Made by a program: the position numbers and the translations under genes. This document shows positions 3,062-3,423 of a stretch of 34,896 nt of DNA, piece after piece (the first letter of the stretch is position 1; each line of letters opens with the position of its first letter). Origin of the DNA: a virus. Taxonomy: Duplodnaviria; Heunggongvirae; Uroviricota; Caudoviricetes. The stretch covers positions 1 through 34,896 of IMG/VR virus record IMGVR_UViG_2548877009_000017, one strand, 5' to 3'. The notes under the pieces were generated by a model. The model was not told where the DNA came from and ran no database searches. It was given only the letters and a program-made list of their open reading frames with translations.

Positions 3062-3325
3062 ATGATGTACAGCAAATACGACGAGGCGCAGTTTCACTTG
3101 AGACTTCCGCATGAACTCCACGCGAAAATTAAACAGCGCGCGAAAATGAATAACAGGTCGCTGAACTCAGAGATAATTGCAGCGATTGAAGAATCATTGG
3201 CTAAACAAAGCTCTGCATCAGTTTACATTGACGATGCAGAGCGTATGGCAGAACAACAATCTGATATGGTTAAGAAAATTGTCTTTGATACGCTCAAGGA
3301 GCTATATAAAAAAGACAGCAGTTAA
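3062..3325 (+). CDS. mnt: Mnt-like ribbon-helix-helix repressor (Arc/MetJ family)
   Basis: C-terminal DAERMAEQQSDMVKKIVFDTLKELYKK and RSLNSEII motif match P22 Mnt; start chosen at ATG 3062 preceded by GGTGAGG. Confidence 0.8.
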   Translation: MMYSKYDEAQFHLRLPHELHAKIKQRAKMNNRSLNSEIIAAIEESLAKQSSASVYIDDAERMAEQQSDMVKKIVFDTLKELYKKDSS

Positions 3326-3345
3326 CCATCAGTTACGGAGGATTT

Positions 3346-3423
3346 ATGCAAAGAGATATGCTGAATATTGCGTTCTACATATTTGGTTTTTGCACGTTCC
3401 TGGTGTTTGCGAAGCTATTCTGA
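3346..3423 (+). CDS. Candidate 25-aa hydrophobic peptide (MQRDMLNIAFYIFGFCTFLVFAKLF)
   Basis: ATG preceded by GGAGG at ideal spacing; single predicted TM helix; overlaps the 3' end of the convergent ejection-protein gene; absent from ORF track because it is short. Confidence 0.3.
   Translation: MQRDMLNIAFYIFGFCTFLVFAKLF

Follow-up and report, generated by a model that had tools for sequence, protein, structure and literature searches.

The region between the tailspike and ejection-protein genes of this prophage carries a 25-codon open reading frame (ORF) that, judging from its conservation, is almost certainly a real, never-annotated gene, and that matters more than the lone mnt repressor gene beside it. 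The window, by which we mean the whole 34,896-nucleotide stretch analysed, has the content of a P22-like (Sf6/IME10/Sf101-type) E. coli prophage. As the best overall explanation, held with moderate confidence, the locus would be a reduced 'ant moron' (immI/sieA region) whose two genes run against the late operon, on the strand corresponding to that from which P22 expresses mnt and sieA in the lysogen.

In the model towards which we lean, an autoregulating Mnt, a read-through transcript and a SieA-like exclusion peptide would be combined. The mnt product would be a functional RHH tetrameric repressor whose DNA-reading strand differs from that of P22 Mnt, acting on TACC-N5-GGTA just upstream of its own weak promoter, Pmnt, with autoregulation of this promoter as its likely job. 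The Pmnt transcript would read into the 25-codon gene, which has a strong ribosome-binding site and whose 25-residue product is predicted to be a single-pass inner-membrane peptide of a conserved, unannotated family. This peptide may act in superinfection exclusion as a functional analogue of SieA in miniature, and would block DNA delivery by incoming phages through interference with the C-terminal hydrophobic segment of the gp16-type ejection protein.

The small open reading frame and the ejection gene

A first-pass annotation of the sequence had pointed to a hydrophobic ORF of 25 aa behind a GGAGG, and this ORF is present at 3346–3423 on the + strand (MQRDMLNIAFYIFGFCTFLVFAKLF), with the GGAGG Shine-Dalgarno (SD) sequence at 3337–3341, 4 nt before the ATG. 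It is convergent with the ejection (DNA-transfer) protein gene (3415–5808, − strand), the analogue of Sf6 gp13 and P22 gp16, whose product has an N-terminal SLT transglycosylase domain (Pfam SLT, E = 3e-25) and which is 95% identical in nucleotide sequence to Sf6 gene 13 at the 3' end. The two frames overlap by 9 nt in the window and by 9–12 nt across loci, and the small ORF always overlaps the stop of ejection genes of the Sf6/L/BTP1 gene-16 type. The small ORF also exists in Sf6 and BTP1, which have no mnt, and hence does not depend on Mnt; on these comparisons, it belongs to the 3' flank of gp16-type ejection genes and not to mnt.

Conservation in relatives had been proposed as a check on this ORF, and it is high, with the 78-nt frame kept without an indel in 169 of 171 related loci and with translation signals present. 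The other reading offered at first, an RBS-like coincidence, is contradicted by conservation far beyond chance. ATG-initiated ORFs of at least 20 aa with GGAGG 3–9 nt upstream number five in the whole window, the small ORF included, and of the remaining four, three or more are inside evident genes. The 52 nucleotide variants of the small ORF among related loci give 23, 22 and 47 changes at the three codon positions, with 39 synonymous changes against 24 expected (P ~0.0004, from a minimum-spanning-tree count, which recombination can inflate); a conservative per-site test of codon position (16/13/26, p = 0.08) is suggestive only. Between the E. coli and Salmonella lineages, pS is 0.96 and pN 0.27 (pN/pS 0.28). 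Arg3 is written with four codons from both codon families (AGA, AGG, CGA and CGT) and Ile12 with three, while the mean Kyte-Doolittle hydropathy from residue 8 to the end stays at 1.6–2.6 in all variants. The ORF is conserved across Escherichia, Shigella, Salmonella and Klebsiella-phage genomes, and the Sf6, L/ST64T and BTP1-type phages that we examined all carry it.

The sequence upstream of the ORF is far from uniform. At least five upstream contexts are joined to it, with mosaic junctions at or just before the ATG, and an SD 4–7 nt upstream reads GGAGG in 6 of 11 representative sequences and GAGG in two more. Its strength is variable, being weak in the Sf6 and Gally contexts, and the SD context TACGGAGGATTTATG is common to the window and phage L (CTACGAGGATTTATG).

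The small peptide has no Pfam or PHROG match. We rejected RNA structure as the cause of conservation at 3320–3430, where neither strand folds better than shuffles (z = −0.5 and −0.8) and no Rfam match is found. We likewise rejected a relationship to P22 orf59a or sieA, orf59a being hydrophilic and the window holding no SieA or orf59a match. For the collection of loci, a degenerate-pattern scan of viral contigs anchored on the gp16 C-terminus recovered one locus only, and exact patterns were used instead.

STnc6030, SieA and superinfection exclusion

The first-pass annotation had also read the peptide as a possible toxin-like or regulatory element; the ORF did prove worth a second look, and the reading itself is replaced by homology to an ORF in STnc6030 of phage BTP1. 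Type I toxins (Ibs, ShoB, TisB, Ldr, Hok) resemble the peptide in their size of 19–50 aa, their one hydrophobic helix and their overlap with an antisense transcript. The peptide differs from them in that it matches no known toxin family in Pfam or PHROG, and that neither a dedicated small cis-antisense RNA (Rfam) nor a folded 5' UTR signal was found; furthermore, the whole BTP1 locus under a constitutive promoter was tolerated and protective, with no toxicity reported (PMC7067206).

STnc6030 is a prophage-expressed superinfection-exclusion locus of BTP1, published as a 786-nt antisense RNA (Owen et al. 2020, PMC7067206), which we placed at L190 1395–2180 via the primers of that study. Nucleotides 407–478 of the transcript encode a homolog of the window peptide, MERDLLNFVFLIFGLVVGKLLFA, which has 23 aa and ~40% identity to the 25-aa peptide, is likewise preceded by GGAGG and overlaps the ejection-gene stop. 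No other ATG ORF on that strand of STnc6030 reaches 20 aa. A peptide was not considered in the BTP1 study, because its search was confined to ORFs longer than 60 aa (PMC7067206). Both loci occupy the same slot on the anti-late strand, running from the intergenic region into the 3' end of a gp16-type ejection gene, and the window thus has a conserved small ORF on the anti-late strand across the tailspike/ejection-gene junction. The match rests on the same SD, stop overlap and gp16 C-terminal type, with the mnt module inserted upstream in the window. The BTP1 transcript starts inside the tailspike gene and has no mnt, whereas the window has mnt and a promoter upstream of the ORF; no convincing match to a conserved STnc6030-type promoter was found inside the window's tailspike gene.

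We regard the chances as evenly balanced that STnc6030 is the mRNA of a conserved 23–25-residue membrane peptide that blocks injection, with the window as its E. coli ortholog and the Mnt cassette as an autoregulated promoter unit. Infecting BTP1 is wholly excluded by STnc6030, while the yield of the induced prophage is unaffected; the exclusion is specific for BTP1, leaving P22 unaffected; single SNPs escape it although ~320 nt of the RNA are perfectly complementary to the injection gene; and all four escape SNPs are nonsynonymous in the injection protein (PMC7067206). A block of injection accounts for these published phenotypes better than antisense pairing does and, if exerted by a peptide, would leave induced prophages immune to their own 'RNA'.

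The escape data also point to a particular part of the ejection protein. In a C-terminal alignment that took in P22 gp16, L, BTP1 and Sf6, the BTP1 escape cluster ILGIGTVTNPALV, which lies 61–73 residues from the C-terminus of the BTP1 ejection protein, includes the residue aligned with P22 gp16 P546 and is situated ~9 residues beyond G532. P546 and G532 are SieA-escape sites in P22 gp16 (Leavitt et al. 2024, PMC10883804), and the SieA-escape change P546S thus aligns within the segment altered in the BTP1 escapes. The homologous segment of the window's ejection protein, IIGYGTAMNPATT (3598–3636, − strand), is the predicted target of the peptide.

We think it unlikely that RNA alone is the effector, such that a Pmnt read-through RNA pairs with the late mRNA over the ejection-gene 3' end and the small ORF is untranslated or irrelevant. 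The authors of the BTP1 study interpreted STnc6030 as an antisense RNA (PMC7067206), the window transcript would, given no terminator, be antisense to the ejection-gene 3' end, and an exclusion that is BTP1-specific and spares P22, which differs in sequence, is consistent with pairing. An antisense RNA, however, needs no intergenic reading frame, yet the small ORF shows an excess of synonymous changes, switching between Arg codon families and a lack of indels, and it takes its SD from various upstream modules. As described above, folding of the region is no better than that of shuffled sequence on either strand, and Rfam has no match. Moreover, pairing over ~320 nt should survive single SNPs, the induced prophage is unaffected, and the STnc6030 escape sites coincide with the SieA-escape site in gp16, all of which argue for the peptide as the probable effector.

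In both position and orientation, the small ORF corresponds to sieA of P22, which follows gene 16 directly, in convergent orientation, and likewise specifies a hydrophobic product, in its case an inner-membrane protein. This arrangement, together with the BTP1 escape cluster at the P546-aligned residue, is what the two systems share. The hallmarks of the SieA family (homology, ~160 aa, three TM helices and a motif) are lacking in the peptide, which has no sequence similarity to SieA, has 25 aa and one predicted helix as against ~162 aa and three helices, and is missing the SieA motif FxRYPxEAxxFNK. The resemblance is therefore best described as a functional analogy and not as family membership. 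Hybrids that carry L and Sf6 ejection proteins are excluded by SieA (Leavitt et al. 2024, PMC10883804), whereas STnc6030 spares P22, so the target ranges of the two differ.

The peptide is tightly associated with the gp16 C-terminal type. Since the two genes overlap by 9–12 nt, this association could reflect physical linkage: it consists of two types only, which is indistinguishable from linkage, and within each type the peptide and the gp16 segment showed no covariation at a finer scale.

Mnt, its candidate operator and the absence of antirepressor genes

The mnt gene (3065–3325, + strand; 86 aa) is divergent from the tailspike gene (1045–2943, − strand), whose product begins MSDITANVV and has a P22 gp9-type N-terminal head-binding domain (Pfam Head_binding, residues 1–113, E = 5e-66). 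The gap of about 118 bp originally described between them is confirmed when counted from the in-frame alternative ATG at 3062, and is 121 bp from 3065, which is the conserved start, because the first ATG is replaced by AGG in most relatives and PGAP annotates 86 aa. The product matches the Arc-like RHH family PF03869 (residues 8–50, E = 7.8e-15), the Repressor_Mnt tetramerisation domain PF11423 (residues 58–83, E = 3.4e-14), and the structures 1MNT (E = 3e-19) and, for the tetramerisation domain, 1QEY (E = 2e-8), with 49% identity to P22 Mnt over 80 residues. It is a mosaic, joining a JEP4/VSe13-type RHH N-domain of the 'YSKYDEAQFHLRL' specificity type to a P22-like C-terminal tetramerisation domain. 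Substitutions among 52 distinct full-length 86-aa alleles comprise 79 synonymous, 66 nonsynonymous and no stop changes, with a strong third-position bias (28/27/90 across codon positions), a pattern indicating that mnt is under purifying selection and is not decaying.

The orphan-Mnt arrangement itself is ordinary and already described: a lone mnt is known from phages L, ST64T and ST104 as an 'ant moron' variant (Villafane et al. 2008; Zaworski et al. 2020), and Sf101 and IME10 carry an almost identical region. As in P22 immI, the locus is flanked by gene 16 and the tailspike gene, is opposite in strand to the late operon, and combines an Mnt having RHH and tetramerisation domains with a palindrome directly upstream of the Pmnt −35. 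Unlike P22 immI, the window has no arc, ant, sar or recognisable Pant; the Mnt residues His6/Asn8 of P22 are Gln/His here, and the operator half-site is TACC instead of GTCCAC.

Comparison with P22 Omnt, which had been suggested as a check, identified the palindrome ATACCGAAATGGTAC (2990–3004; core TACC-N5-GGTA at 2991–3003) upstream of mnt at the Omnt-homologous position, as the candidate cognate operator beside the gene's own promoter. The palindrome is unique in the window, and related loci with the motif have exactly one copy each, always upstream of mnt, in which the arms are invariant and the centre is variable. A further copy at 34231 with one mismatch was rejected, as it falls within a DUF551 ORF and such a match is expected by chance. 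Three pairings of palindrome and beta-strand occur at this one position, with GGTCCACCGTGGACC in P22, AGACCAC-N-GTGGTCT in L/Gally and ATACCGAAATGGTAC in the window, so that operator class co-varies with the Mnt beta-strand residues across the three types.

The left mosaic boundary falls at 2986–2989, immediately left of the operator, so the operator moves with mnt and not with the tailspike gene. Nucleotide homology to VSe13 is limited to 2989–3159, that is, to the operator, promoter and RHH domain, and by these boundaries mnt and the candidate operator travel as one module. On the tailspike side, an imperfect inverted repeat (ATGCAACCA/TGATTGCAT; 2969–2991) lies between the operator and the tailspike RBS and is part of the tailspike-side module; it was rejected as a structured RNA since its fold is not statistically special (z = −1.3), and inverted repeats unrelated in sequence occupy the equivalent place in other phages.

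One nucleotide separates the operator from ATTGAG, which includes the −35 hexamer of the putative Pmnt (TTGAGT - 15 nt - TACGAT; 3007–3033, + strand), homologous to P22 Pmnt. TACGAT is present in all relatives compared. The consensus match is weak (8/12, below the 9/12 threshold of our standard scan) and the spacer has 15 nt, for which reason transcription of mnt and the small ORF from Pmnt is putative. No terminator was found between mnt and the small ORF, so the Pmnt transcript should continue into the 25-codon gene 20 nt downstream, and the two genes are probably co-transcribed. As there is no ant gene and no credible Pant, the likely job of Mnt would be autoregulation of this transcript.

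The first-pass annotation had proposed instead that Mnt was retained to regulate tailspike-directed transcription, an idea that is not new, since a role of Mnt/Arc in tailspike levels was raised earlier (Villafane et al. 2008). In that reading, Mnt would have been kept after the loss of arc and ant to repress a Pant-derived promoter that now fires into the tailspike gene, controlling tailspike expression in the lysogen. The operator does sit in the gap that separates mnt from the tailspike gene, at the place corresponding to the overlap of Omnt with the start of Pant in P22, the tailspike gene is the immediate leftward neighbour of the mnt/operator module in most related loci, and the best leftward match, a weak ATGGCA-17-AATACT (8/12), would initiate transcription inside the operator. 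However, a scan with a threshold of at least 9/12, which recovers P22 Pant (11/12) and Pmnt (10/12), detected no tailspike-facing promoter in the window, phage L, Gally or JEP4, the P22 −35 TTGACA has no counterpart in the window, and a Pant-like promoter was rejected. The mosaic boundary links the operator to mnt rather than to the tailspike gene, and in several loci ~0.3–1.3 kb is inserted between mnt and the tailspike gene with the operator still beside mnt. With no convincing promoter found, tailspike regulation is unsupported, and we consider it quite improbable.

The reported absence of arc and ant was verified: tblastn with P22 Arc, Ant and SieA had no match across the full 34.9 kb, Pfam showed no antirepressor domain in 20 early- and nin-region ORFs, and Rfam gave no match, sar RNA included, for 2700–3700 at E ≤ 1. 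The window therefore lacks the arc and ant under Pant and the sar antisense RNA that define P22 immI. No fetched locus with window-type mnt matched P22 Arc or Ant, and weak Arc- and Ant-like tblastn matches occurred only in a 63%-identical Citrobacter relative (L008). In Serratia L007, JEP4 and VSe13, antirepressor genes or a remnant adjoin window-type mnt; unlike in P22, their place is on the downstream side of mnt, in convergent orientation, and not divergent between mnt and the tailspike gene.

This mnt and its operator-recognition module are under selection with no ant in cis, and relatives of the same RHH type (Serratia L007, JEP4, Citrobacter L008) have antirepressor genes nearby. It is conceivable that the lone Mnt represses the antirepressor promoter of superinfecting relatives with the same operator and so prevents Ant-mediated prophage induction; we find this very doubtful. 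In JEP4 and Serratia, no second operator was found near the antirepressor genes (5–8 kb examined), the sole copy being upstream of mnt and not at the ant operon. The ant operon adjoins its own divergent repressor gene in JEP4 and a second divergent RHH gene in Serratia L007, and no phage with a ATACCGAAATGGTAC-type operator at a Pant-like promoter was found.

Finally, that mnt is a decaying immI leftover and the 25-codon ORF a chance frame with an SD-like sequence is highly improbable, and the conservation evidence largely refutes it. Truncated mnt alleles do occur in small numbers (31 aa in three loci, 4 aa in one) and the 97-aa antirepressor fragment retained by VSe13 shows that deletions happen in the region, but the full-length alleles have no stops and a strong third-position bias, the operator arms are invariant, and the small ORF is kept across four host and phage groups at low pN/pS.

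Implications for P22-like phages

The Mnt described here appears to be linked to its operator in a module that is under selection and has a new DNA specificity; as a naturally occurring pair of operator and reading strand, it would be the third for the classic Arc/Mnt recognition system. The small-ORF gene family is unannotated; ~9% of complete E. coli genomes have a match to its 3' region. The peptide reading addresses a puzzle posed by BTP1, in which an 'antisense RNA' excludes the infecting phage, spares the induced prophage and is escaped by single missense changes. If this reading is correct, a 25-residue peptide would be able to block the trans-envelope DNA conduit of a short-tailed phage, and the independent escape-mutant sets of SieA and STnc6030 would converge on one segment of the ejection protein. 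The peptide would then be, to our knowledge, the smallest phage superinfection-exclusion protein described, and would serve as a warning that a prophage transcript classed as 'ncRNA' by an ORF-length cut-off may nevertheless encode a micro-protein.

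The prophage and its mnt gene

The window comprises most of one P22-like lambdoid prophage in reverse reading direction: an O-antigen acyltransferase gene (1–987, plus strand; Acyl_transf_3 family, Pfam E=3e-28), the tailspike gene (1045–2943, minus strand), the gene of an SLT-domain, gp16-type ejection protein (3415–5808, minus strand), gp20- and gp7-like ejection genes, and then the late operon, lysis genes, a Q-type antiterminator, nin genes, replication genes, cII, cro, a cI-type repressor and early-left genes. The acyltransferase gene lies directly downstream of the tailspike gene, the usual position for serotype conversion (cf. 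Sf6 and Sf101 oac). Positions 2900–3500 are 97% identical to phage IME10 and, up to 3333 only, 98% identical to Shigella phage Sf101, and the gene arrangement of both phages is identical in kind to the window's mnt region. Among 5,426 complete E. coli genomes, 495 contain pieces of this region and 141 the entire arrangement.

The plus-strand ORF annotated at first pass as an Mnt homologue indeed encodes an Arc-like RHH domain and an Mnt tetramerisation domain, matches PDB 1MNT and 1QEY, and shares 49% identity with P22 Mnt. Its start is moved: because the first ATG, at 3062, is AGG in most relatives and PGAP calls an 86-aa product, we place the gene at 3065–3325, from the conserved start. A spanning-tree count over 52 distinct full-length alleles gave 79 synonymous changes, 66 nonsynonymous ones and no stops, with 28/27/90 changes per codon position; truncated alleles were seen in four loci only. 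This pattern indicates that mnt is under selection. In Sf101 the gene is wrongly named ‘partition protein ATPase’, a label common in RefSeq phage records (NC_027398.1 for Sf101, NC_002371.2 for P22, and others) and in PHROG phrog_795, and an annotation error that has propagated.

Operator, promoters and the missing antirepressor genes

An mnt gene without arc and ant is a known arrangement. The variable interval between gene 16 and the tailspike gene has been named the “ant moron”, and in ST64T, ST104 and one Paratyphi prophage it holds mnt and one gene of unknown kind, nothing else (Villafane et al. 2008); the content in phage L is of the same kind, and both “another function” and “a remnant” were left possible (Zaworski et al. 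2020). The absence of arc and ant first noted for the window holds: tblastn with P22 Arc, Ant and SieA gave no match in the window or in the fetched loci with window-type mnt. The sole source of Arc- and Ant-like tblastn matches, both weak, was a 63%-identical Citrobacter relative (L008), and the P22 antisense RNA sar was not found in the window region. Relatives of the same RHH type appear to show where antirepressor genes formerly lay. In a Serratia marcescens contig (L007, 1072–3431), mnt is followed by two antirepressor genes and an Arc-like gene that converge on it, and a second RHH gene (152-aa protein) diverges from the Arc-like gene. JEP4 (L093, 4273–6933) shares this convergent layout, here with Rha- and KilA-annotated genes and a 57-aa ORF, and its C2-like repressor gene diverges from the Rha/KilA operon. 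We read both layouts as an alternative immI arrangement; no second copy of the operator core TACC-N5-GGTA was found near the ant operon of either. Salmonella phage VSe13 has a leftover 97-aa antirepressor C-terminal fragment. In the window, the gap from the mnt stop to the downstream small ORF is just 20 bp.

Comparison with P22 Omnt, as suggested at first pass, located a candidate operator, ATACCGAAATGGTAC, at the Omnt-homologous position. The palindrome at this position, one base from ATTGAG, which holds the Pmnt -35 hexamer, is particular to each Mnt type: GGTCCACCGTGGACC accompanies Mnt ARDDPHFNFRMP in the P22 type, AGACCAC-N-GTGGTCT accompanies GRDDPQFNLRLP in the L and Gally type, and ATACCGAAATGGTAC accompanies YSKYDEAQFHLRL-P/T/S in the window type. 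P22 Mnt contacts DNA via Arg2, His6, Asn8 and Arg10, to which Tyr, Gln, His and Arg of window Mnt align. The core TACC-N5-GGTA occurs once in the window and exactly once per matching related locus, upstream of mnt (Escherichia, Salmonella, Serratia), with a one-base variant in Citrobacter L008 (TACCGAAATAGTA); across related loci the arms of the candidate operator are invariant and the centre is variable. Nucleotide homology to VSe13 is limited to 2989–3159, covering operator, promoter and RHH domain at about 88% identity, and E. coli mosaic boundaries fall at 2986–2989. The C-terminal tetramerisation half of window Mnt is P22/L-like, unlike its N-domain, which together with operator and promoter is of the JEP4/VSe13/Serratia type. 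We infer that the specificity module was inherited as a unit, and that domain-level shuffling uncouples DNA specificity from oligomerisation. In several otherwise near-identical prophages an insertion of roughly 0.3–1.3 kb parts the tailspike gene from the mnt operator, the operator remaining with mnt (loci L006, L015, L062, L067 and L075, with the tailspike start ~620 bp further from mnt; also L050, L057, L073, L081, L087, L046 and L090), and in one E. coli genome (H79) an HNH endonuclease gene is listed in this interval.

It had been suggested, at first pass, that Mnt may have been kept to regulate tailspike-directed transcription, and a possible Mnt/Arc effect on tailspike levels had been proposed earlier (Villafane et al. 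2008). A consensus promoter scan with a threshold of 9/12, which recovered the control P22 promoters Pant (11/12) and Pmnt (10/12), found no promoter reaching 9/12 in either direction in the window control region, and none facing the tailspike gene in Gally, JEP4 or phage L. Tailspike regulation by Mnt is thus unsupported and of low probability, and we conclude that Pant has decayed in the window. Relaxed scanning gave two candidates: TTGAGT-15-TACGAT (3007–3033), a putative Pmnt by homology that matches the consensus weakly and whose TACGAT is found in all relatives compared, and a weak leftward ATGGCA-17-AATACT. Mutually unrelated inverted repeats lie 15–40 nt upstream of the tailspike RBS in different P22-like phages (Sf6, L091 1404–1500; window, 2969–2991; L005, 3878–3945; P22, L004 about 5150–5200). 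The Sf6 repeat, CCGGACA..TGTCCGG, has an RNA fold of z=-2.6, that of P22/JEP4 is CCGCAGC-ATG-GCTACGG, and the fold of the window repeat is not significant (z=-1.3); such repeats may represent a conserved 5'-UTR hairpin or protein site.

The small ORF at the ejection-gene end

The small ORF downstream of mnt is present as first described, with 25 codons at 3346–3423 (plus strand) and a GGAGG at 3337–3341; such a site precedes just five ATG ORFs of 20 aa or more in the whole window. Its conservation in related prophages was confirmed, the 78-nt frame being intact and free of indels at 169 of the 171 loci that were anchored within gp16 coding sequence; in the remaining two, the flank is unrelated. 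Among the loci compared, the small ORF accompanies every Sf6-type gp16 C-terminus and is otherwise absent. In two viral contigs, L109 and L111 (~6281–6371), the same gp16 C-terminal type, ending ...KSDALSW, is followed by a short unrelated flank without the small ORF and then the tailspike gene, so recombination at the stop of gene 16 can remove the peptide gene. Sf6 lacks mnt and has nothing but the small ORF between gene 13 and the tailspike gene; VSe13 and Gally have it behind a lipoprotein-like gene; in Sf101 the ejection gene end differs and it is missing. Its several distinct upstream contexts join at or just before the ATG. The small ORF belongs with the ejection-gene flank, and linkage alone could explain its association with gp16 type. 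The lipoprotein-like gene of Gally (L092 3465–3980) and VSe13 (L003 3736–4221) lies ~20 nt upstream of the small ORF, on its strand, and encodes a 161–171-aa protein whose signal sequence is of the lipoprotein type (MKKSLLIIPLLLAGC...). Gally has a second such gene on the late strand (L092 2941–3360); the prophage may express these products as additional surface or exclusion factors.

Across 52 nucleotide variants, a spanning tree places 23/22/47 changes by codon position and shows no stops; synonymous changes number 39, compared with an expectation of 24 (P about 0.0004, a spanning-tree value that recombination can inflate); the conservative per-site count is 16/13/26 (p=0.08). Phage L has a counterpart at the equivalent site, MNRDLLNFAFLIFGIVVGRLLFA, again overlapping the gp16 stop and in the same SD context (CTACGAGGATTTATG, compared with TACGGAGGATTTATG in the window), with orf62 between mnt and the peptide ORF. 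A tblastn search finds the 23-aa form in 29 phage records, among them ST64T, ST104, g341c, BTP1, MG40, Klebsiella phiKp_30 and E. coli HF4s, and no record examined annotates the peptide ORF. Both lineages share the motif M-x-R-[DN]-x-[LIM]-N-x-[AV]-F-[YL]-I-[FV]-G and a strongly hydrophobic C-terminal part, with pS=0.96 and pN=0.27 between them; Arg3 is encoded by AGA, AGG, CGA and CGT, and Ile12 by three codons. On this substitution pattern, the small ORF is almost certainly a protein-coding gene. A 94-aa TTG-initiated ORF (3177–3461, plus strand), which overlaps both mnt and the small ORF out of frame, is probably spurious: conservation analysis lends it no support, and in relatives its frame gathers changes that create stops.

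A possible role in superinfection exclusion

STnc6030 is a highly expressed 786-nt transcript of the BTP1 prophage, antisense to the tailspike 5' end and the injection-gene 3' end; having no ORF longer than 60 aa, it was classed as non-coding (Owen et al. 2020, PMC7067206). In the same study, its expression from a plasmid gave total immunity to BTP1 and none to P22, the phage yield of the induced prophage was not lowered, which the authors left unexplained, and escape arose through four SNPs within 36 bp, each missense in the injection protein. Using the published primers and coordinates, we placed STnc6030 at 1395–2180 of the BTP1 locus (L190). The 23-aa ORF with its GGAGG occupies transcript nt 407–478, and therefore is intact on the exclusion plasmid; no other ATG ORF reaching 20 aa lies on the STnc6030 strand within the transcript. 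The escape cluster codes for ILGIGTVTNPALV, 61–73 residues from the injection-protein C-terminus.

The P22 exclusion gene sieA occupies the same slot as the small ORF, convergent with gene 16, and escape from SieA involves gp16 G532W and P546S together with gp20 changes (Leavitt et al. 2024, PMC10883804). In a C-terminal alignment, P22 gp16 P546 lies inside the STnc6030 escape cluster and G532 ~9 residues before it. The equivalent window segment, IIGYGTAMNPATT (3598–3636), is invariant over about 170 loci apart from the rare natural variants GYGAAMNP, NPTTT and NPVTT (L041, L161, L181), which could be natural escape alleles. Within the searchable library STnc6030 is named in three works only; those consulted describe it as an RNA, and BTP1 is not mentioned in the SieA paper.

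We propose that the small ORF product would be a membrane peptide that blocks phage DNA injection, a reading that would also account for the conservation of the intergenic frame as protein. An injection-blocking peptide would explain single missense escapes despite ~320 nt complementary to the injection gene, the indifference of induced prophages and the overlap of STnc6030 escape sites with a SieA escape site, none of which an antisense mechanism explains, and the two mechanisms are not mutually exclusive. With the peptide gene 20 nt after mnt and no terminator found between them in the window, the Mnt/operator/Pmnt cassette suggests itself as the expression source, and plausibly drives autoregulated expression of the peptide in the lysogen.
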